Of a DNA stretch of 64,000 bases, positions 21,670-63,426 are shown piece after piece. The notes under the pieces were generated by a model, which saw only the letters and a program-made list of their open reading frames with translations, ran no database searches and was not told the origin of the DNA. The DNA comes from Leptolyngbyaceae cyanobacterium (GTDB lineage: Bacteria > Cyanobacteriota > Cyanobacteriia > Phormidesmidales > Phormidesmidaceae). Each line of letters begins with the position of its first letter. Positions within the stretch are counted from its first letter, which is position 1. The stretch is taken from contig CBDHHL010000056.1 of NCBI GenBank assembly GCA_965263355.1, positions 928,001-992,000 on the forward strand, written 5' to 3'. The translations under genes and the position numbers were made by a program.

Positions 21670-24597
21670 TTACAGCATCACAAAGTCACTAATATCGACT
21701 TGGCTGACCGTTGTTTGCTTGAGTAAAGCTAGCTGCTTATCGGTTGCAGCTATGCTAAGTAGTACATCGTCATCCTTTTGATTAACAGACAGTTGCCCAA
21801 ACGTCAGAGCACCATTAAGCACAAACTTATCTTGACCGTCTTGATAGTCGAGAATGGTATTTAGACCATTATCAATTGCTAAGATAAAACGATCATTGCC
21901 AGGCCCACCTTTTAACTCATCGTTACCAGGCCCACCGTCTAATAAGTCGTCGCCCCAGTTACCAAATAAATGATCATCACCAGTATTTCCTTCGAGACGA
22001 TCATCACCCCAATTGCCAAAAATTTCATCATCACCCAATCCGCCTATAAGGTCATCATCACCCCAATGACCAAGAATTCGATCATCACCAGCTAGACCGT
22101 CAATCGTATCATCGGCAGGGGTTCCCTCTAGGAAATCATCATCATTATCAGTGCCCAAGATTGTATCGTCAGAAAGTACCTGAAGCTCAAAAATGTCAGA
22201 TACTGTTTCTCCTTCATTATCGGTTGCAATAACTTCGATAGAGAAAGTACCCAGTTCACCAACTGTTGGCGTTCCAAACAAGGCTAAAGCAAAGATACTT
22301 GTAGTGAAAGTAAGCCAATCAGGTAACGGGTCGCCATTCTCTAGGGTAGCATTCAACGTTAGAGTATGGTTAGGATCAACACCATCATCCACATCCTGGA
22401 AATAGACATCTGTAGGAATGATAAAGGTAAATGATTGGTTAACAATGGCTGCTTGATCAGGCAGTTCGGTTTCTAATGTGGGTGCATCGTTAGTATTGTT
22501 AACTGTTAAATCGAAGGTTGTACCGACCACGCCTCCATTGCCATCACTTGAGGTTACCGTAATCGGTATGGCACCAACATCGTCATTCTCTGGGGTTCCA
22601 CTAAACGTGCGCGATTGTTCATCAAACATAAGCCAATCTGGCAGAGGTGTTGTTGTATAGGTTAATATGTCGCCATCAGCGTCGTTAAATGTGTCTGTAG
22701 CAAATTGAAATTCAAACAGAGTATCTTCATCTGCAATTTGATCTGGTATTGGGTTTACAAGAGTAGGTGGATTATTGTCTGAATCCGAAGTCTCATAAAG
22801 ACTCAATGTATATTCACCTGTATCATTACCGCCAATATCACTGACCATAAGCGAGTAAGTCCCCGTTTGGTCCAGGTCAAAGTCTTGCAACAGTGCATTG
22901 CCGATGCCTCCATTTTCCGGTTGCACTTCAATAGCAAGGCTCCCGTCTGGATTATAGAGACGGAACTGAGAAGCTTGCAGAATACTGAAATCATTGAGTT
23001 GTAGAGTGATGATATCGCCTTCAGTCCCATTGAAGGTGTAATGGTCTAAATCACTGGCAACCTCCAAACTACTTTCAATACTCTCCCCATAATTGATCGG
23101 TACTGAATTACCAGGGGTATTGACACTCTCTAGCGTAAAAACATAATCGCCTGTATCATTACCGCCAACATCACTGACCATAAGCGAGTAAGTCCCCGTT
23201 TGGTCCAGGTCAAAGTCTTGCAACAGTGCATTGCCGATGCCTCCATTTTCCGGTTGCACTTCAATAGCAAGGCTCCCGTCTGGATTATAGAGACGGAACT
23301 GAGAAGCTTGCAGAATACTGAAATCATTGAGTTGTAGAGTGATGATATCGCCTTCAGTCCCATTGAAGGTGTAATGGTCTAAATCACTGGCAACCTCCAA
23401 ACTACTTTCAATACTCTCCCCATAATTGATCGGTACTGAATTACCAGGGGTATTGACACTCTCTAGCGTAAAAACATAATCGCCTGTATCATTACCGCCA
23501 ACATCACTGACCATAAGCGAGTAAGTCCCCGTTTGGTCCAGGTCAAAGTCTTGCAACAGTGCATTGCCGATGCCTCCATTTTCCGGTTGCACTTCAATAG
23601 CAAGGCTCCCGTCTGGATTATAGAGACGGAACTGAGAAGCTTGCAGAATACTGAAATCATTGAGTTGTAGAGTGATGATATCGCCTTCAGTCCCATTGAA
23701 GGTGTAATGGTCTAAATCACTGGCAACCTCCAAACTACTTTCAATACTCTCCCCATAATTGATCGGTACTGAATTACCAGGGGTATTGACACTCTCTAGC
23801 GTAAAAACATAATCGCCTGTATCATTACCGCCAACATCACTGACCATAAGCGAGTAAGTCCCCGTTTGGTCCAAGTAAAAGTCTTGCAACAGTGCATTGC
23901 CGATGCCTCCATTTTCCGGTTGCACTTCAATAGCAAGGCTCCCGTCTGGATTATAGAGACGGAACTGAGAAGCTTGCAGAATACTGAAATCATTGAGTTG
24001 TAGAGTGATGATATCGCCTTCAGTCCCATTGAAGGTGTAATGGTCTAAATCACTGGCAACCTCCAAACTACTTTCAATACTCTCTCCATAACTGATTGGT
24101 ACTGAATTACCAGGGGTATTGACACTCTCTAGCGTAAAAACATAATCGCCTGTATCATTACCGCCAACATCACTGACCATAAGCAAGTAAGTCCCCGTTT
24201 GGTCGAGGTCAAAGTCTTGTAACAGTGCATTGCCGATACCTCCATTTTCCGGTTGCACTTCGATGGCAAGGCTCCCGTCTGGATTATAGAGATGAAACTG
24301 AGAAGCTTGCAGGATACTAAAATCGTTAAGCTGTAGAGTGATAATGTCATCTGCTGTCCCTTCAAAGATGTAATAATCTTCTTCTCCTGGAAAATCAATG
24401 GCATTATTAGACACACTTTGGCCATACTCTACAGTTTCAGAATCTTGATTAGTTGTTGAAGCAATGGTGTCTGCTTCAAACAAACCTATGTCCACATTGA
24501 CTAATTTTTGAGATGTTTTATTCAAATAGATAGCCTTATTCAAAGTATTCAGACTCTCTTCAGCAGTTAAAAACGTCCAAAACAAGCGGTCAGACAT
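21670..24597 (-). CDS. Secreted repeat protein: five PPC-like beta-domains, two cadherin/Ig-like (He_PIG) domains and a C-terminal RTX Ca-binding region
   Basis: DLDHYTFNGTEGD..GTYSLMVSD repeats; LPDWLxF...FSGTP; GGxGxD nonapeptides. Confidence 0.85.
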   Translation of the reverse strand: MSDRLFWTFLTAEESLNTLNKAIYLNKTSQKLVNVDIGLFEADTIASTTNQDSETVEYGQSVSNNAIDFPGEEDYYIFEGTADDIITLQLNDFSILQASQFHLYNPDGSLAIEVQPENGGIGNALLQDFDLDQTGTYLLMVSDVGGNDTGDYVFTLESVNTPGNSVPISYGESIESSLEVASDLDHYTFNGTEGDIITLQLNDFSILQASQFRLYNPDGSLAIEVQPENGGIGNALLQDFYLDQTGTYSLMVSDVGGNDTGDYVFTLESVNTPGNSVPINYGESIESSLEVASDLDHYTFNGTEGDIITLQLNDFSILQASQFRLYNPDGSLAIEVQPENGGIGNALLQDFDLDQTGTYSLMVSDVGGNDTGDYVFTLESVNTPGNSVPINYGESIESSLEVASDLDHYTFNGTEGDIITLQLNDFSILQASQFRLYNPDGSLAIEVQPENGGIGNALLQDFDLDQTGTYSLMVSDVGGNDTGDYVFTLESVNTPGNSVPINYGESIESSLEVASDLDHYTFNGTEGDIITLQLNDFSILQASQFRLYNPDGSLAIEVQPENGGIGNALLQDFDLDQTGTYSLMVSDIGGNDTGEYTLSLYETSDSDNNPPTLVNPIPDQIADEDTLFEFQFATDTFNDADGDILTYTTTPLPDWLMFDEQSRTFSGTPENDDVGAIPITVTSSDGNGGVVGTTFDLTVNNTNDAPTLETELPDQAAIVNQSFTFIIPTDVYFQDVDDGVDPNHTLTLNATLENGDPLPDWLTFTTSIFALALFGTPTVGELGTFSIEVIATDNEGETVSDIFELQVLSDDTILGTDNDDDFLEGTPADDTIDGLAGDDRILGHWGDDDLIGGLGDDEIFGNWGDDRLEGNTGDDHLFGNWGDDLLDGGPGNDELKGGPGNDRFILAIDNGLNTILDYQDGQDKFVLNGALTFGQLSVNQKDDDVLLSIAATDKQLALLKQTTVSQVDISDFVML
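22795..24435 (-). repeat. Intragenic tandem repeat, 333-bp (111-aa) unit x5
   Basis: Shadow ORFs recur at 23030, 23363, 23696 and 24029; four units are nearly identical in DNA. Boundaries approximate. Confidence 0.92.
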
Positions 24598-54551: not shown

Positions 54552-56729
54552 ATGTATAGCATTACCTTAAAGCCAGTCTATTCATGTCCTGCTCAACAAC
54601 TGCCTGATGGAGTTATTTTGCCTGATGGCTGGGAGTCTTTGGCTTGGCATCAGGTCGAGACCTTTAAAGCACTCAACGATCCTGATGTCGATGTTGTTTT
54701 TAACACAGCAATGACCGGAGATGGTAAGAGTTTAGCTGCCTATCTCAAGGTATTTCAGGAGTATTACTGTGCTCTAGGTCTTTATCCCACCAATGAGTTA
54801 GCCAGAGATCAAGAAAATCAACTGCTGGAGAATATCCAAAAATTTAAGCCATCCCATAGGCCAAGAGTAAATCGTCTGAGTAGTGCTGAGTTAGAGATTT
54901 ATGCAGAAACTGAAGGGTTGACTAAAGCTGGGTCCATAGGAACACTAACAAACCAATCCGAAGTCATCGTCACTAACCCTGATATCCTGCACTACATTTA
55001 CCGGGGTGCCTATGTAATGAAACAGGACACGCCAGATAAGCTATGGAATCGGATTGACCGAAATTTTGACTTATTTATCTTTGATGAGTTTCATATTTTT
55101 GCGGCACCCCAAGTGGCCAGTGTTATCAACACGCTGTTGTTAATTCGATTGACCAATCGGCCTAAAAAGTTTTTATTCTTGTCTGCGACGCCTGATGAAC
55201 AACTTGTGGGACGCCTGAGAACTGCTGGGTTTCGTTGTCAGGTGATTGATCCACAGAAAGAGAACAAATATAATTTTCCAGATAGTGCTGAACAAGCTAT
55301 TGAGTTAAATGGTAAACACTGGCGGCAAATTGCCAGGGCTATAGATCTAAACTTTGTAGCAGTTGAATCGACGTCTAAAGCATCGGAAACCTGGATCAAA
55401 GAGAATTCAGAACAAATTCTGCAGCATTTTCAACAAGGTCCTGGCACTAAGGGGGCAATCATTCTGAACTCTATTGCTTCAGTTAAGCGGCTGGTACCTT
55501 TTCTACAAAACTTGTTTCAGCCCCATGGATTGACTGTTGGTGAAAATACAGGACTTTCAGGTAAAGAAAAACGAGCGCAATCTTTAGAGGCTGATTTGGT
55601 TATTGGTACCAGCACCATTGATGTGGGTGTGGACTTTAAGATTAACTTTTTAATTTTTGAATCAGCCGATGCTGGTAATTTTATTCAGCGATTGGGGCGA
55701 TTGGGCAGACATGATGGCTATGTGAAAGCAGGCAAGGAAATTGCATTCAATGGGTTTACCGCCTATGCCCTGATTCCTCAGTTCTTTGCAGAACGGCTAT
55801 TTACAAAAGGAGACCAGCCACCACTTAAAACGGGTAAGAGTTATGATCGTCAGTCTTTGCACAACATCATCAGAGACAATTATCGAAATATCAACGACTT
55901 TCAGGGTTATTATTCTCGCTGGGGTGCTTATCAGTCCCTGGCATTGGGTAAGAAGTTGGCCGACAAGAAAATTCAAGAACAGTATGCAGGTAGTTTAGCG
56001 GTCTTTCAAGCAACCTGTGAAAAGGTTTTTAATCGTCGCTTTAAGGAATTGTCCGGTCGGGCTAGCAGTTGGCGCAAAGACTGGCAGGCATTATCCGGGA
56101 AGAAAGATGGAAGTAACCCTATTTTTGAAGATGCCTGTAGTTTTCGAGGGGCTAGTCCGCTGCAGTGTGGACTATATGATCTGACTGAAGAAAACCCAGT
56201 GGATCGGTATAAGACCTATTCACTACCGGGCATCCTCAGCAATTTAGAGGTAGAGGTATGGACAAAAGCTGCATTTTTGAGATCCCTCAAAGAAACGGTT
56301 AAAGCGACTGGACAGTCGATACCCAAAGGCAGATTTGAACATTGCCTGATTTTTCTAAAGCTCCGTGCCTACCGTGAAGAACGATTGGATTGGAAGTTTA
56401 CGTATCCAGGTGAACTGACTAAGCAGACTAATCAGGTACAGGTACTGACAGGACTTGAAATCTGGCAACCTGATAACCCATGGGCCAGCAGTGTTAATAA
56501 AAAGCTACGGAATCAAGGAATAGTCTGCTATGGCCTTCATAAACCTGTTCAGGAAGTACGGCATAAGCTGCGACTACCAATGCATTTTCAGCTTTATTCC
56601 ATCAGCGATCACTATAGTTATCACGATCCTAAAGCACCGTATTCAATAGCCTTTGGGCAAAGCGCTTTGATGCTGGATACACTGACTGGCTGGCTCAAGC
56701 ACAAGAGCAGTGAACCACTTATTTTTTAG
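54552..56729 (+). CDS. cas3: Type I-D Cas3' helicase
   Basis: TAMTGDGKS, YPTNEL, DEFH, SAT, TSTIDVGVDF, QRLGRLGRH; no HD domain. Confidence 0.93.
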   Translation: MYSITLKPVYSCPAQQLPDGVILPDGWESLAWHQVETFKALNDPDVDVVFNTAMTGDGKSLAAYLKVFQEYYCALGLYPTNELARDQENQLLENIQKFKPSHRPRVNRLSSAELEIYAETEGLTKAGSIGTLTNQSEVIVTNPDILHYIYRGAYVMKQDTPDKLWNRIDRNFDLFIFDEFHIFAAPQVASVINTLLLIRLTNRPKKFLFLSATPDEQLVGRLRTAGFRCQVIDPQKENKYNFPDSAEQAIELNGKHWRQIARAIDLNFVAVESTSKASETWIKENSEQILQHFQQGPGTKGAIILNSIASVKRLVPFLQNLFQPHGLTVGENTGLSGKEKRAQSLEADLVIGTSTIDVGVDFKINFLIFESADAGNFIQRLGRLGRHDGYVKAGKEIAFNGFTAYALIPQFFAERLFTKGDQPPLKTGKSYDRQSLHNIIRDNYRNINDFQGYYSRWGAYQSLALGKKLADKKIQEQYAGSLAVFQATCEKVFNRRFKELSGRASSWRKDWQALSGKKDGSNPIFEDACSFRGASPLQCGLYDLTEENPVDRYKTYSLPGILSNLEVEVWTKAAFLRSLKETVKATGQSIPKGRFEHCLIFLKLRAYREERLDWKFTYPGELTKQTNQVQVLTGLEIWQPDNPWASSVNKKLRNQGIVCYGLHKPVQEVRHKLRLPMHFQLYSISDHYSYHDPKAPYSIAFGQSALMLDTLTGWLKHKSSEPLIF

Positions 56730-56841
56730 TTTCAGTCCCGGTTTTCGGGATTAGGGATGTCGATAGAAATGAAACAGCTTTCGCCATTAAGTACAGACAG
56801 ACGTGTTTCAGTCCCGATTGTCGGGATTTATATTAACTTCG
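56729..56841 (-). CRISPR. Degenerate mini-CRISPR array: two repeats of about 37 nt and one spacer of about 39 nt
   Basis: Repeats GTTTCAGTCCCGGTTTTCGGGATTAG... (56729) and GTTTCAGTCCCGATTGTCGGGATTTA... (56805). The reverse complement ends in CCCG-loop-CGGGACTGAAAC, like the cyanobacterial I-D repeat as I recall it. Spacer on the minus strand: ACGTCTGTCTGTACTTAATGGCGAAAGCTGTTTCATTTC. Confidence 0.88.
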
Positions 56842-56912
56842 ACAAATTGACCTATCGAACTCTATCAACCAATTTCAATCATATATGGTTTAAGCAATCA
56901 AAGATTGAAAAG

Positions 56913-56933
56913 GTAACGTCAGTCTTAACTTAA
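56913..56933 (+). promoter_or_regulatory. Self-target site A of the mini-array spacer, with GTA PAM
   Basis: GTA|ACGTCAGTCTTAACTTAA versus spacer ACGTCTGTCTGTACTTAA: 15/18, mismatches at positions 6, 11 and 12. Confidence 0.7.
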
Positions 56934-57032
56934 CATATTTAGAAAAAGGTATTGCTATCGGCTATCGATTAAGTTAGCTTCAGATTGTCAGAGGAAGTAA
57001 TTCATTCGTATTAGTTAACTAGGAGTATATCA

Positions 57033-57233
57033 ATGCGACGAATCAAGACGAAAGGAAAAATTGATCTCTTATTAAAGGTACTTTCCGATCACGAATGGCA
57101 TTGGGGAGAAGAGCTTGCTACTAAAGTAGGATGGCGATTTGGTGCAACAGTTAAAACAGCAAGAGACAAAGGATATCAAATTGAAAGTGAGCGTGTTGGT
57201 CTTCAGTGGAGGTATCGACTATTGAGAGATTAG
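57033..57233 (+). CDS. 66-aa winged-HTH protein (BirA N-terminal/HTH_11-like)
   Basis: AGGAG RBS; LLKVLSDHEWHWGEELATKVG...GYQIES...YRL. Confidence 0.75.
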   Translation: MRRIKTKGKIDLLLKVLSDHEWHWGEELATKVGWRFGATVKTARDKGYQIESERVGLQWRYRLLRD

Positions 57234-57294
57234 CTAAAACTTAGATTAAAGTAGCTCTTCGCGAATAACTGTTCCATAAGTTGAAGAGCTCCAC

Positions 57295-57431
57295 AAGGAA
57301 GCCTGATTAATAGCTTTCGGCGTTAAGAACAGGCAGACGTAGTCTAAACCCCCTCGCTTTTTGATAGCAGGCTGGTTAAGTCTTAAGAGCTGATGAACTG
57401 ACTCGAATTTGCAAAGTTCTCAGGCTTCCTT
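57295..57431 (+). ncRNA. Candidate structured RNA/leader element closed by a 12-bp inverted repeat
   Basis: AAGGAAGCCTGA (57295-57306) pairs with TCAGGCTTCCTT (57420-57431); internal stems AGCTT/GAGCT, TTAAGA/TCTTAA, AGAC/GTCT, GAACT/AGTTC. Strand is inferred. Confidence 0.45.
57312..57340 (-). other. Self-target site B of the mini-array spacer (25/29, no GTN PAM)
   Basis: Plus strand AGCTTTCGGCGTTAAGAACAGGCAGACGT versus spacer AGCTTTCGCCATTAAGTACAGACAGACGT (56776-56804); the PAM position reads ACT. Confidence 0.85.
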
Positions 57432-57468
57432 TCTTATAGTTTCAGTCGATGAGTACCTCAAGTGAAAC

Positions 57469-57911
57469 ATGTTTATTCAAAGCCTTGAGAATCTGTATTC
57501 CAAAGTGCCAAAGATTTTAGAGCAAGTTCCCTATCTCAAGCTATTAATACTTTTTGGGTCTAGGGCAAAAGGTGACAATACATCCAACAGTGATTGGGAT
57601 TTTGCTTTTCTATGTGATGAAAATGAGCGTTCTCATTATGAACAAGGTGGTTGGGATAACTTCAGGATCAGTAGCTTGTTAGGACAGGTACTTGAACTTC
57701 CTAGTCATGCTATAGACATCGTGGATCTTAACGAGTGTCCTGAACTTTTAGCCCATCAAATAGCTCAGGACGGAAGGTCATCTACGAAAAAGAACCCAGC
57801 GAGTTTGAACGGTTTCGACAAAGCCATCTAAAGAGTCCAGAGCAAATACAGCAAATAGGACAAGACTTAAGTTCAAGCATTCAAGAGCGTCTACGACAGT
57901 GGAGTGCATGA
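57469..57911 (+). pseudogene. MNT (MntA-like) antitoxin with an apparent 1-nt deletion near 57774
   Basis: LFGSRAKGD..NSDWDFA and IDIVDL motifs. Annotated frame ends at 57831; the shifted frame reads (G)KVIYEKEPSEFERF...WSA to TGA 57911, overlapping the HEPN ATG. Confidence 0.75.
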
Positions 57912-58348
57912 CAATGAATTTTAACTCTGTTCGTTTCAGACTTAACTTGATTCTGGATTATCTAGAAGAGCTGAGACCGCTTGGAACAGTGACGTTTGAT
58001 GAATTAACTGATGATCGATACAAATATCGTTCTGCTGAACGATTGTTGGAAATCATTATCCAGGCTGCCATTGATATCAACAACCATCTGATATCAGGAC
58101 TGAGCAAACGACGACAGGCATCAAATACCGACAATTTTCTGGAAATGGCTAAATTAAATATCCTGACTCCAGAAATAGCGCAAGATTTATCGGCCTCCAG
58201 CAATTTTCGAAATCGTTTGGCCCATGAATATTACAGCATTGATCCATCCATTGTTTTTCAGTCCATTACTAAAGCTTTAGAACAATATCCACAGTACGTG
58301 CAACAAGTGCTTGAATTTGTAGACAACTTTGAGATGAATGATGAGTAA
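57908..58348 (+). CDS. HEPN (DUF86/HepT-like) RNase toxin
   Basis: SAERLLEIIIQAAIDI and intact RNRLAHEY (Rx4HxY) motif; overlaps the cas10d start. Confidence 0.88.
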   Translation: MTMNFNSVRFRLNLILDYLEELRPLGTVTFDELTDDRYKYRSAERLLEIIIQAAIDINNHLISGLSKRRQASNTDNFLEMAKLNILTPEIAQDLSASSNFRNRLAHEYYSIDPSIVFQSITKALEQYPQYVQQVLEFVDNFEMNDE

Positions 58349-61300
58349 TAATCTCAACGACGATAATCTTGATTGGTTAGATGACGATATTGGGGATGAA
58401 CAGTCGTCTAACCGAACGATTGAACCCACTCAGCGTGAGCTTCTGACCTTAAAGCTTTTACGCTCCGCGATTCACACACAGAATCCTGATGATGCCGTAA
58501 TGCAGGATTTTGCTGAGTATGTATTACCTAACTTGTTGAAAATTACCATTGGCGTTACGGCTAAGGGAGGTAAGTTTTTTGACAAGTTAGATCAAGAAAA
58601 GGGGAAAGAAAACGTTCGGCGTGATAATGCAGCGGATCAGTCTCTGAATACTCACTTGCTTAATGGTTTATTTCCAGCAAATCTAATCGAACAACGGCTT
58701 GAACAACTGGATACAACGATTCAACGATTAGTGCGAGAGCAAGAGCGTCGTTTGGTCATGGCGGCTTTTATTCTGCATGATTTTGAGAAATTTCCTGATG
58801 TTGATGGTGAGATTAGAAGCTTGCCTGGTGAAGAACGTCTAAAACAACATCGTCAGGTTATCGACAAAAAAATACAACAGCTTGGGCTAGATCACTTTAT
58901 TAATCCCCAAAATCCAACGGCATACCGAGAGTATCTGGATGATCTGTTATGTATGGCTTACAACGCCCAAAGACGTTGGGATACGAATTGGAATTTTTCA
59001 GAATATGGGTTGCAGCCAGTCTTAAAAGACAAAATTTTGCGAAATTTGACTGAGTTAACCTGTTTAGCTGATTCCTTGGCATCCATCATCAAACATCCCC
59101 AAGATGCCACCAGTTATAAGTTCAAAGAACTACTCCATAGCTTGAGTGACGGACAAATCAGCCTTACCTATCATAGCATTTCAGAAAACAGGGGGGTGTT
59201 GACCAACGTAGTCAATAATGCCGTTATGGATGCCCATATTGCGCTCAATACCCCAGATAAAAAGCATTATGAACCGCTACTCTATCTACCAACTGGGGTT
59301 ATTTATCTGGCCTATGGGAAACCACCTCCGGTGGCACTTAATGATTTGCCTGAGCGGGTGATCGCCAAAATCAAACAACTCTGTTTTGAACAGCTAAGAC
59401 GTCGCCAAACTGGTTTTAGTCGGGATGGTAAAGGCATGAAATATGCCGACTACTACACGCTTTTCTGTGACACTCGGCAGTTAATGTACATCGCCTTAGA
59501 TGCCACCCTCAGAATCTTATCTAACAATAAAAAGTCTGTTGGTCCTAGCCGCAGTGCAAAACTCAAAACGTTTCAAGAAAAAGGTGCTCTTTCAGCGGAT
59601 TATGATTTTCAACTGGGGGATGATATTCGGATTGATCAGCTAGCTGAGTTCGGCGATGTGATTTGCCGTAAAGTGTGGGGTGAGCGATGCGATCTCATCC
59701 AAACCCTATACAAAGAAAGAACCAAAAAACGGAAGAAAAACAAAGACTTATCAGAACTTCCGGAGTTAAAGCTATTGCCTGAACAACTGGTTATCAAGCT
59801 GGCTGAGTTTTTAGGTCTATCAGAGTATCTACCGCAACTCCGAGAAATCCAGACTATTAACGCTACTCTAAAAGAGAAAAAAGTCAAAGGCAGTACCGGT
59901 GGCATTCCCTACGAATGGTATTTTATCTCCACTAAACTAATTCAGGGTTCAGGTATCGAAAATATTCGAGAGATTGCCGAGAAAATTATTGACCATGCTG
60001 CAAACTTAATTGAGCCTGTTATCGCCCAATATGAAGTTGCTGATGGCTGGGATGACTTAAGATCTTGGGTAAATCAAGTGGTGATGCTGCCACAGGCCAC
60101 CATAACTAAAACACCCAAAGATCAGACCGATATCTTTCTAAAGGAATTGGCCAGCTATCAGGTGGCCAAAAAAGTTGGACGTGGCAAACTAGCGATTTGC
60201 TCAGTCTCCCATTCTGCCTACTCTGTAAAAGAGCAAATGGAATCAGAGGTATTATTTACTCCCCAGGTGTATACCAATAAACAGCTACTGGGTGGTTCTA
60301 ACGCGAAACGCAATATTTCCAGCATTGCAGGGTTAGAAATGATGCTACGTCAGATTCTAATGAACCAAACTCAAGCAGTGGGCAAACGGTTTGAAGATGG
60401 CAAATATCGTTATCTCTACTTTTACCCTACCTACTACTTCACCCCGGAAACCAGTCGTTTCTTACAAAAAGCTTATACAGGCATTGCCCAAACTCGATTT
60501 AGTACCAATCTACGCAATCACTTTATCTCTAAGGATTTGGTCGTTGATTTTAGTCGTGAGCACTATCAGGCGGTTGATTCATTCTTGATCGATGATGATT
60601 TAGAGCGCAAGACAACCTTACCTGAAGATGATCCAGACTATAAACGCGATCGCACCTTTAAACTCTCTTACCCAGACGATCAGCCATTAACCTTTTTCTT
60701 TATGGCATTGCCACCGGGACGAGACCCCACCGATACCGAATCTTGGGTAATGCCAGCCTGGTTAGCCTTTGCTAGTCCAATGATTCTGGATGTCAAAACC
60801 GTGGTCTCAGAATCTCCTGTCCCCCCATTTAATGATGGTGCGGAGTTTGAAGAAAGTGTCTTTTTGGATAGTGCCCCCCAAGCCTTTAGAGCCCTACTCA
60901 AACAGGATAGGTTCCGGTTAGATTACATCCTTGAAGGTTGGCAAACCCCAGACGGCACCCAGCAAGCTTCTCCCCTTAATGCCTTAACCAGTGCCTATGC
61001 AATTCACCTGGATGTGAATGCCAAACAAGGTAAGGGAGGATATGACGCTAACTGGGGCAAGTTGACAGAGCTAGCCAAAGATTTAGAAACCAGTCCGCTC
61101 TATGTATTCAATTACTTAAATCGTTGGCTTCGTAATCAGAAAAAAGAATCTATACGTATAGAAAAGATCAAACTCTATGCCTACCACTTTTATCCCTGTT
61201 TTGACCCGCATACAAAATTAATCGTACTTGACTTGGAGGAAATGCTTGTGTGTGACGAGAAATCTGCGCTGAGACATCCGCAAAGACTGACCGAATTGTA

Positions 61301-61757
61301 CAGACGGTTTTATCGTGCCGATAAACGATATAACCCCAAAAGCAATGCCGTTTTGAAACCGATCAAGGAAGCCGCTGATGTTATTTTGAATGCGGATACT
61401 GATGGGTTTAGGGGAGAAGACTTAGTCTTTTTAGTTGCTGCTAAGAATACAAAGTTAATGGATCGAATTCATTCGTCAGGTGCGGAAGGCTATCCTGTCT
61501 TTAAACGAAATGAGCGCGACCAAGAACGAGAATCTATCCTAGAATTTGCTCGATATTTTGTCCATGAGGTATTTGAAAAATCCTTTGCTAGTGATCGTGG
61601 TCGGTTAGCAGGCAGACAACTCAATCTTCTGCGTGATGCGTGTGAATTCATCTATCGTCTTGAACAAGACAAAGAAAATAAAAAAGATAAAGATAAAGCA
61701 GACAGTAAGCAAATCAAGAACGACGTTAACTCATCGAACGATAATGGCGAGGATTAA
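58338..61757 (+). CDS. cas10d: Type I-D large subunit Cas10d (Csc3) with N-terminal HD domain
   Basis: DQSLNTHLLNG, LHDFEK HD motif, RGVLTN, YTNKQ, DTESW. Confidence 0.92.
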   Translation: MMSNNLNDDNLDWLDDDIGDEQSSNRTIEPTQRELLTLKLLRSAIHTQNPDDAVMQDFAEYVLPNLLKITIGVTAKGGKFFDKLDQEKGKENVRRDNAADQSLNTHLLNGLFPANLIEQRLEQLDTTIQRLVREQERRLVMAAFILHDFEKFPDVDGEIRSLPGEERLKQHRQVIDKKIQQLGLDHFINPQNPTAYREYLDDLLCMAYNAQRRWDTNWNFSEYGLQPVLKDKILRNLTELTCLADSLASIIKHPQDATSYKFKELLHSLSDGQISLTYHSISENRGVLTNVVNNAVMDAHIALNTPDKKHYEPLLYLPTGVIYLAYGKPPPVALNDLPERVIAKIKQLCFEQLRRRQTGFSRDGKGMKYADYYTLFCDTRQLMYIALDATLRILSNNKKSVGPSRSAKLKTFQEKGALSADYDFQLGDDIRIDQLAEFGDVICRKVWGERCDLIQTLYKERTKKRKKNKDLSELPELKLLPEQLVIKLAEFLGLSEYLPQLREIQTINATLKEKKVKGSTGGIPYEWYFISTKLIQGSGIENIREIAEKIIDHAANLIEPVIAQYEVADGWDDLRSWVNQVVMLPQATITKTPKDQTDIFLKELASYQVAKKVGRGKLAICSVSHSAYSVKEQMESEVLFTPQVYTNKQLLGGSNAKRNISSIAGLEMMLRQILMNQTQAVGKRFEDGKYRYLYFYPTYYFTPETSRFLQKAYTGIAQTRFSTNLRNHFISKDLVVDFSREHYQAVDSFLIDDDLERKTTLPEDDPDYKRDRTFKLSYPDDQPLTFFFMALPPGRDPTDTESWVMPAWLAFASPMILDVKTVVSESPVPPFNDGAEFEESVFLDSAPQAFRALLKQDRFRLDYILEGWQTPDGTQQASPLNALTSAYAIHLDVNAKQGKGGYDANWGKLTELAKDLETSPLYVFNYLNRWLRNQKKESIRIEKIKLYAYHFYPCFDPHTKLIVLDLEEMLVCDEKSALRHPQRLTELYRRFYRADKRYNPKSNAVLKPIKEAADVILNADTDGFRGEDLVFLVAAKNTKLMDRIHSSGAEGYPVFKRNERDQERESILEFARYFVHEVFEKSFASDRGRLAGRQLNLLRDACEFIYRLEQDKENKKDKDKADSKQIKNDVNSSNDNGED
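61248..61757 (+). CDS. cas11d: Probable internally translated small subunit Cas11d
   Basis: GGAGG at 61235-61239, then in-frame ATG 61242 and GTG 61248, before LTELYRRFYRA. Confidence 0.6.
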   Translation: MCDEKSALRHPQRLTELYRRFYRADKRYNPKSNAVLKPIKEAADVILNADTDGFRGEDLVFLVAAKNTKLMDRIHSSGAEGYPVFKRNERDQERESILEFARYFVHEVFEKSFASDRGRLAGRQLNLLRDACEFIYRLEQDKENKKDKDKADSKQIKNDVNSSNDNGED

Positions 61758-62369: not shown

Positions 62370-62415
62370 CTGTGTTTTGAATGTCCAGCAAACTATTAAA
62401 CCAGGAAAATTAATT

Positions 62416-63426
62416 ATGACTTTGCTCAAAACCCTCGATTCTAAGTTTTTCCATAACGAAATTCCCTATAAACCCATGGGAAAATATGCACATTTTCTGA
62501 CTGTTCGTATCACCGAGTCTTATCCTCTATTTCAAACAGATGGAGAACTCAATAAAGCAAGGGTTCGAGCTGGAATCGTAAATGCTCAACCTGTCAGGCG
62601 ATTAAGCATGTTTAAGCGTAAACAATCAACGCCAGAACGTTTGGTAGGCAGAGAACTTTTACGTAACTATGGCTTTATGACTGCAGAAGACTGTGAGTAT
62701 AACGTCAAATTTGCCATGGATAATCCAGACTGTATTATCTATGGATTTGCCATTGGTGACTCTGGTTCAGAAAAGTCAAAGGTGGTTGTAGATACTGCTT
62801 TTTCTATTACACCCTTTGATAAATCCCATGAAACTTTTACCCTAAATGCACCATTTGAGAATGGAACAATGGCCTCTAAAGGAGAAGGTGGAGGAAAGTT
62901 AGGAGAAATTACAAATCGCATCAATCAGCAAGACCATATTCGCCCCCAGGTTTTTTTCCCAAGCATTGTCACCCTCAAAGATCCAACGGAAGCAGGCTTT
63001 TTGTATGTGTTCAACAATATCTTACGTACTCGTCATTATGGAGCTCAGACGACACGTACAGGACGGGTACGGAATGAGTTAATTGGTGTTGTTTTTGCTG
63101 ATGGTGAAATTGTTAGCAACCTGCGCTGGACTCAAGCTATCTACGATTTAATGAAAGATGGTGGCCATTTAGATATTCCAGACCCTTTAAATGAGGATGA
63201 TGTTGTACAAGCCGCTAAAGATGCGATCGCAAATCTCATGTCAGATGAATTTATTGTCCATACAGACTTTATCGGGGATGATTTTCAATCTGTACTGGAT
63301 GAAGTTAAGTCTTTAACCGGTACTGAAAAAGGTATCAAGTCAATTTTAGAAGCCGCTGATGCCGAAGCTAAAACCTATGCCTCTAAGCACATCAGTAGCA
63401 AGAAAAAAGCTGCCGCCAAGAAATAA
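62416..63426 (+). CDS. cas7d: Type I-D Cas7 (Csc2)
   Basis: FKRKQSTPERLVGRELLR, CEYN..PDCIIYGFAIG, YGAQTTRTG; start set at ATG 62416. Confidence 0.93.
   Translation: MTLLKTLDSKFFHNEIPYKPMGKYAHFLTVRITESYPLFQTDGELNKARVRAGIVNAQPVRRLSMFKRKQSTPERLVGRELLRNYGFMTAEDCEYNVKFAMDNPDCIIYGFAIGDSGSEKSKVVVDTAFSITPFDKSHETFTLNAPFENGTMASKGEGGGKLGEITNRINQQDHIRPQVFFPSIVTLKDPTEAGFLYVFNNILRTRHYGAQTTRTGRVRNELIGVVFADGEIVSNLRWTQAIYDLMKDGGHLDIPDPLNEDDVVQAAKDAIANLMSDEFIVHTDFIGDDFQSVLDEVKSLTGTEKGIKSILEAADAEAKTYASKHISSKKKAAAKK

Follow-up and report, generated by a model that had tools for sequence, protein, structure and literature searches.

One mini-array guide of a cyanobacterial type I-D CRISPR-Cas locus probably targets both the promoter and the transcript of a toxin-antitoxin and cas gene cassette

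Gene content of the locus and its mini-array

The stretch of DNA analysed here (64,000 nt, referred to below as the window) carries a CRISPR-Cas locus that profile matches across the 64 kb assign to the cyanobacterial type I-D. Its genes are arranged in the order WYL gene (minus strand), YhcG/DUF1016, cas3′, a 1.6-kb insert, cas10d and cas7d (Table 1). The insert contains a two-repeat mini-array on the minus strand (56729–56841), a gene for a 66-AA HTH-like protein (wHTH), mntA and hepT. Comparison of the wHTH protein with Pfam/NCBIfam gave no match and with the PDB no significant relative (best E 0.11); it has six database relatives besides itself, and the atlas linked it at 0.95 to clusters in which 22–37% of the members carry HTH_39. 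The mntA reading frame is interrupted: at window positions 57773–57777 every covering contig from four sequencing runs has one more base. Elsewhere, too, the contigs with the extra base disagree with the window sequence; the contig identical to it ends at 57734. The frameshift is probably an assembly error; if real, it would leave HepT without its full antitoxin. In runs X1 and X2 a related contig has 990 other letters in place of window positions 56490–57550, a divergent insert between cas3′ and mntA. Directly 5′ of the mntA ATG lies a hairpin with arms GTTTCA/TGAAAC (57440–57468) that resembles the repeat ends, and elsewhere in the window (22810–24441) there are five 333-nt tandem coding repeats, mostly 97–99% identical.

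Table 1. Coordinates of the features discussed, in window positions unless a locus identifier is given
Feature	Position	Strand	Remarks
cas3′ (type I-D helicase)	54552–56729	+	TIGR03158, E 7e-113
Distal degenerate repeat	56729–56765	−	stem-loop kept
Guide (39-nt pseudo-spacer)	56766–56804	−	position 1 at 56804
Leader-side repeat	56805–56841	−	stem-loop and 8-nt 5′ handle kept
Candidate extended −10 of the mini-array	56859–56864	−	found by eye; not recovered by promoter scans
PAM GTA of site A	56913–56915	+	GTN/GTH PAM per PMC10212523
Site A, seed-type dsDNA target	56916–56933	+	15/18 matches
Candidate promoter TTGCTA-17-TAGCTT of the wHTH/cargo transcript	56952–56980	+	relaxed scan
wHTH, small HTH-like gene (66 AA)	57033–57233	+	SD AGGAG at 57021
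Conserved, putatively structured RNA (about 150 nt)	57290–57443	+	closing stem 57295–57306 / 57420–57431
Site B	57309–57340	−	matches the guide at 27/32; flanked by ACT, no PAM
mntA antitoxin	57469–57831	+	NF047752; frameshift near 57775
hepT HEPN RNase toxin (type VII TA)	57899–58348	+	NF047751
cas10d	58338–61757	+	TIGR03174; HD motif present
cas7d/csc2	62377–63426	+	TIGR03157
Site-B ORF family 1	L013:12530-12727, L016:12514-12705, L023:2791-2982, L062		63–78 AA
Site-B ORF family 2	L004:12972-13208, L008:12633-12869, L018:12666-12893		63–78 AA

The mini-array has the composition of CreR/CreA elements, two degenerate repeats around one spacer inside the cas locus, and its leader-side repeat keeps the 5′ handle and the Cas6 hairpin (−8.0 kcal/mol) in an orientation opposite to cas3. 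The repeats were compared with the type I-D repeat of Synechocystis pSYSA, the cognate array lying outside the window. Over the final 22 nt the leader-side repeat agrees with it at 20 positions and the distal repeat at 18, which fixes guide position 1. A minus-strand match to Rfam CRISPR-DR52 at the distal repeat was weak and below the gathering threshold.

A PAM-flanked match upstream of the cargo genes

An earlier note on this DNA had described a GTA followed by matches to guide positions 1–5, 7–10 and 13–18 (site A), and direct reading of the sequence confirmed it. Pairing ends after position 18, as proposed; beyond it there are only four scattered matches (26, 27, 37 and 38). The mismatches at 6 and 12, attributed to bases flipped out in the effector complex, are present, but a third one at position 11, which is not a flipped position, had been omitted. 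The placement of the site about 100 bp upstream of wHTH and within the leader of the mini-array also holds: it ends 100 nt before the ATG (57033), and the distance from the start of its PAM to the leader-side repeat, measured at the 5′ end of the latter, is 71 nt. GTA fits the type I-D PAMs given in PMC10212523, GTN for Synechocystis and GTH for Microcystis, and is rare among the relatives examined here (2/28). When GTN, a perfect match at positions 1–5 and at least 14 of 15 non-sixth positions were required, site A was the only such site on both strands of the 64-kb window, and none occurred in 100 dinucleotide-shuffled windows; the analytic expectation is 1.8e-6 per 627-nt stretch, or 0.014 per 5-Mb genome. 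As in CreR/CreA elements, the match is partial, anchored in the seed, flanked by the PAM of the subtype and beyond chance.

The position of site A relative to a promoter was examined by scanning for sigma-70 elements. A strict scan gave no promoter on either strand between 56600 and 57600. The hexamers TTGAAA (56905) and TAACAT (56931), between which the site had been placed, do exist, but as a promoter they are unsupported, being 20 nt apart; with this spacing and the empty strict scan the pair was dropped in favour of a candidate at 56952–56980, a weak consensus (7/12) found with the relaxed scan. This candidate has counterparts in L012 (TTGCAA/TAGGTT, at the same offset) and L021 (TTGCAA/TAGCTT). 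Its −35 box, weak and absent from the strict scan, begins 19 nt past the site A match, and a Cascade footprint of 36–39 nt starting at 56916 would end at this box. CreR targets are reported to adjoin −35 boxes (10.1101/2023.03.10.532045). A feedback of site A on the guide itself, also suggested by the earlier note, appears doubtful; the only minus-strand candidate −10, picked by eye, would place site A near −60 or farther upstream. In several relatives predicted minus-strand −10 boxes end 14–36 nt from the repeat. Five relatives (L017, L021, L025, L026, L028) have a second GTN-flanked target closer to the array, the two lying in tandem or on opposite strands, 55–135 nt from the leader-side repeat; the nearer of them may repress the mini-array's own promoter. 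The window is without such a target.

To place the site in a wider context we used loci fetched by cas3′, 43 from genomes and 30 from metagenomes. The resulting 35 distinct loci, including the window, have a leader-side repeat, chosen by hand, which lies either a short way behind cas3′ or deeper in the insert. Loci without a repeat were left out (17 of the 43 genome loci and 13 of the 26 metagenome loci with a cas3′ end, four of the 30 metagenome loci lacking that end), as were L022 and L067, which have only a repeat beside the cas3′ stop, and the duplicates L056, L058, L065 and L074 (the last a duplicate of L012). When no PAM was required, 23 of 27 loci had a GTN flank at the insert match with the highest seed-weighted score. 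With the GTN filter, 28 of 35 loci had a seed match to their own guide within 300 nt, the guides being unrelated and differing completely between groups. Among these 28 loci, positions 6, 12 and 18 matched in 9, 5 and 11 cases vs. 15–28 at positions 7–11 and 13–17 (positions 1–5 were required to match), and positions 19–32 stayed at background (5–10 matches). Foreign guides differing in the first 5 nt never reached 9/15 or more in any of 26 loci. A second set, selected by the wHTH protein, comprised 25 of 401 genomes and three plasmid loci; here site A was found in all 11 non-duplicate loci in which wHTH follows cas3′. Six further loci (L087, L091, L093, L094, L095, L097) are arranged differently: the mini-array neighbours the WYL gene, site A, on the minus strand, precedes a wHTH homologue that lies farther off, and there is no site B (see below).

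As the design of PAM, seed and early end of pairing recurs across relatives with different guides, comparative sequence analysis indicates that site A is a selected Cascade binding site. Partial PAM-flanked matches have been described as repressing rather than cutting. The proposal that binding without cleavage would repress the transcript running in the wHTH/TA/cas direction gains support from the recurrence in 28 of 35 loci and from the published CreR/CreA logic. Most likely, the guide brings the cell's own CRISPR complex to a place beside the promoter of the neighbouring toxin-antitoxin and CRISPR genes, which would be self-control of a known kind.

A second match without a PAM inside a putative RNA element

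The guide has another match, site B, 27/32 without a PAM, which accounts for positions 19–32. It lies on the minus strand, and the plus-strand RNA, i.e., the cas-direction transcript, is the complement of the guide at this place. The calculated duplex energy is −46.8 kcal/mol; site A, if taken as RNA, gives −20.3 kcal/mol. Among the 35 loci, 15 have a site B of at least 21/32 without GTN, in each case on the strand whose transcript complements the guide, and the score was reached by 0–1 of 50 shuffles each. The three plus-strand matches of at least 21 are one site A, one at chance level and one unexplained. In the held-out wHTH set site B reached at least 20/32 in 10 of 11 loci and at least 21 in eight; L080 and L082, which at 20/32 fall short of the threshold of 21 used first, were retained. 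The two sets together gave 25 site-B loci (15 plus 10), 16 of which belong to one guide family; the loci are related, so that the counts are not independent and overstate independence.

At these 25 sites the mismatches are periodic. Matches at every sixth position (6n) number 39/125 vs. 98/125, 93/125, 87/100, 116/125 and 122/125 in the other phases (78–98%), and the dip is seen in all six guide groups, including positions 24 and 30, beyond the reach of site A. A crRNA bound by Cas7 tolerates mismatches with a period of six bases. According to PMC10212523 one base in six is flipped, ‘starting at position one’, a numbering that differs from that of the 6n pattern observed here. Neither naked antisense pairing nor simple descent would give such a period, which makes it likely that site B is read by the Cas7-bound guide. 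Guide and site B also change together, at positions 5, 11, 20, 22, 25 and 29; at position 5 the change in the window is common to the guide, site A and site B.

These results bear on the simplest account of the locus, a plain CreR/CreA circuit in which site A represses and site B is a relic of the sequence from which the spacer came. Both sites occur in 13 of the 35 loci, site A only in 15, site B only in two (L008, L051) and neither in five; site B is dispensable, and the two sites are separable. That site A alone suffices in 15 loci speaks for the plain circuit, as does the description of I-D mini-arrays with promoter targets only in 10.1101/2023.03.03.530964, as far as its text was available. 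Yet descent alone would scatter the mismatches, which instead fall at 6n up to 24 and 30, and it would not produce compensatory changes at six positions, a pattern recurring in six guide groups of unrelated sequence, or loci that keep B without A. We regard this account as unlikely. Two loci with neither site, L060 and L063, have a PAM-less plus-strand match of 20–21/32, best at guide positions 19–29, 96 nt from the repeat.

In the window's family site B lies within a conserved element of about 150 nt that follows wHTH and consists of a purine-rich 5′ strand, a complementary 3′ strand and conserved internal blocks. Its predicted structure is moderately supported. The fold of the window sequence has z = −1.39, the closing stem was exceeded by at most one of 200 shuffles in 10 of 16 sequences, and the alifold covariation term is −0.03, with two-sided change in 11 of 23 pairs. 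Neither Rfam (nothing above chance) nor a blastn search of plasmids gave a match, and one exact degenerate pattern, a narrow search, found none in viral contigs. A model of the element matched only its five training I-D loci among 151 genomes and, among 61 sequence sources, the window, L085, L015 and L100. In the last two, both I-D loci, the element persists (L015:13150-13293, L100:5801-5936) ahead of a DUF433-type gene, with no matching guide, promoter or wHTH.

The conserved sequence outside the guide-paired part, the confinement of all five matches in 151 genomes to the I-D loci behind the model, and a position analogous to creT would fit a CreT-like RNA toxin, neutralised by the guide both at the promoter and by direct binding. 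CreTA toxin RNAs have a strong SD, a start codon and rare codons; in our alignment, examined by eye, no start codon is conserved after the purine-rich 5′ strand (in-frame ATG in 2 of 15 rows), and the minigene reading was rejected on this ground. The copies in L015 and L100 have no matching guide, though promoter and wHTH are also gone there, and in other families a small ORF behind the site is the likelier effector. An RNA toxin therefore seems very improbable. We also considered a ribosome-binding-site switch: of 14 folds with site B forced single-stranded, 12 showed hardly any change in the accessibility of the downstream RBS and two an increase (L051 gave no ORF), and this candidate was rejected.

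Whether site B is bound as RNA or as DNA was assessed from its flank and mismatches. No GTN flank occurs at the 25 sites (the filter enforced this for the first 15), and 21 of the 25 have ANT where a PAM would stand, in guide families that are not related. This conserved flank would suit a reading in which a Cascade roadblock forms on DNA, either on the displaced non-template strand or on dsDNA with a non-canonical ANT flank, and I-D Cascade also binds ssDNA, as stated in the literature available. Wobble does not discriminate here: G-U-type mismatches at site B (31 vs. 11) are driven by one family (24 vs. 1), those at site A stand at 17 vs. 1, and they do not separate RNA from DNA at site B. 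Against DNA, guide positions 1, 2 and 3 are mismatched in 5, 7 and 8 of 15 loci, mismatches that the seed of a dsDNA target would not accept; with the HD nuclease intact, a match of 27/32 in dsDNA would risk self-cleavage; and site B lies inside a conserved RNA-like fold. We hold binding as DNA to be highly unlikely and infer that the substrate is probably RNA.

Proposed regulation and comparison with described circuits

One guide thus probably locks both the promoter DNA and the transcript, RNA rather than single-stranded DNA being inferred for the latter. We propose that the minus-strand mini-array would be transcribed, with Cas6 cutting the RNA at both repeat hairpins, and that the guide would load into the locus's own type I-D Cascade. 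In the first lock Cas10d would read GTA and the guide would form an R-loop over positions 1–18, too short to license cleavage; the complex would cover roughly 56913–56951, abut the −35 box at 56952 and repress the transcript wHTH – RNA element – mntA – hepT, possibly with the cas10d operon. Repression at site A is, in our estimation, very likely. In the second lock the loaded guide would pair through positions 4–32, with no PAM, with leaky transcript inside the RNA element, and what lies downstream would be silenced by premature termination or decay, an outcome at which we can only guess. Loss of Cascade, or competition from ordinary crRNAs, would release both locks and induce the cargo and the cas genes. 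The explanation as a whole, with site A in promoter DNA and site B in the transcript, appears moderately probable, and we lean slightly towards the view that a single guide uses both binding modes of I-D Cascade, PAM-dependent on promoter DNA (1–18) and PAM-free on structured RNA (4–32).

PMC9123187 gives 11 nM for the binding of ssRNA by I-D Cascade, whatever the flank, and 35 nM for GTT-dsDNA. Such PAM/PFS-independent ssRNA binding by type I-D Cascade from Synechocystis (PMC9123187, PMC10212523) is the biochemistry that site B needs; it was described in vitro with a fully matched target, while in vivo interference, in the text of PMC10212523 at hand, was tested only against dsDNA. The same difference in affinity, together with the longer pairing at B, the lack of an RBS switch and a closing stem that suggests a discrete, stable RNA, could favour a decoy, in which the transcript soaks up guide-loaded Cascade and draws it off site A, the positive feedback giving switch-like induction of toxin and cas genes. 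In L008 and L051, however, B occurs without a detectable A, so that there would be nothing to relieve, and a permanent decoy would weaken repression; a decoy role is improbable. Returning to the two locks, AcrID1 is predicted to block dsDNA binding, and PMC9123187 gives, in the part available, no indication of an effect on single-strand binding. The two locks might therefore differ in how they react to an anti-CRISPR on the one hand and to the complete loss of Cascade on the other.

Site A itself is an example of a circuit already predicted for type I-D, and a clean one. Among the predictions of 10.1101/2023.03.03.530964 (PMC10120712, Fig. 6A) are I-D mini-arrays that target promoters, the TA cargo being placed between cas3 and cas10d, and the window has the features drawn there: a fixed mini-array after cas3, variable TA/regulator cargo before cas10d and a target upstream of it. 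As in the published I-D cases, the two repeats follow cas3 directly in the opposite orientation, and the PAM-flanked seed target lies upstream of the TA/regulator cargo and shows sixth-position tolerance. In contrast to our locus, the available text of PMC10120712 mentions no PAM-less second target or structured RNA; further PAM-plus-seed targets were sought there and none was reported in the cases examined in detail. Repression of cas promoters by CreR has been shown for I-B, I-E and V-A, the I-D elements resting on manual search only (10.1101/2023.03.10.532045, in the part available). Our locus shares with CreR (same source) the degenerate mini-CRISPR and the partial PAM-flanked match, which lies next to a −35 box in CreR and near a weak candidate −35 box here; unlike CreR, which in the text available has a DNA target only, its target is separated from cas10d by cargo, and there is a second site complementary to the transcript. 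With CreTA/CrePA (PMC12737573) it would share a crRNA-like antitoxin repressing a toxic gene in the cas locus, an arrangement that penalises the cell when the effector is lost or inhibited. Unlike in CreTA/CrePA, where repression is described as transcriptional only in the accessible part of PMC12737573, the cargo here is wHTH plus MntA/HepT with its own protein antitoxin, and Pfam/NCBIfam give no KilA-N domain, the CrePA toxin, in the cargo. In Synechocystis pSYSA the cas3–cas10d gap is 13 nt, which leaves no room for this cassette.

What is new here, at the level of sequence, is the pairing of a PAM-less site B complementary to the transcript with a site A of known type. A literature search, with thin coverage of subscription journals, gave no paper on a second PAM-less, transcript-complementary target, and the term ‘I-D’ does not occur in the text of 10.1101/2024.10.29.618823. 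If the two-lock explanation is true, the RNA element would be a natural cellular RNA target of I-D Cascade and part of a two-layer regulator, and site B would give a testable answer to the purpose of PAM-free RNA binding in this type I/III hybrid. Mini-array guides would then control genes after as well as before transcription, and surveys for PAM-plus-seed targets alone would miss half of the circuit.

The remaining guide families place site B close to, or at, the predicted transcript 5′ end, and it is followed by an ORF of 63–78 AA of no known family. None of six such ORFs gave a significant match in Pfam, and the atlas gave no usable match for the one compared; they are candidate toxins under the same double control. 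The two ORF families directly behind site B (Table 1) carry QL(T/S/E)LF-like motifs, which we take to resemble sliding-clamp-binding motifs. The window's Cas10d, as called, is without an N-terminal motif of the QLSLF/QLSLL type, presumably also sliding-clamp-motif-like, which is found ahead of an acidic stretch at the Cas10d N-termini of L004, L008, L015, L016, L017, L021, L023 and L025.
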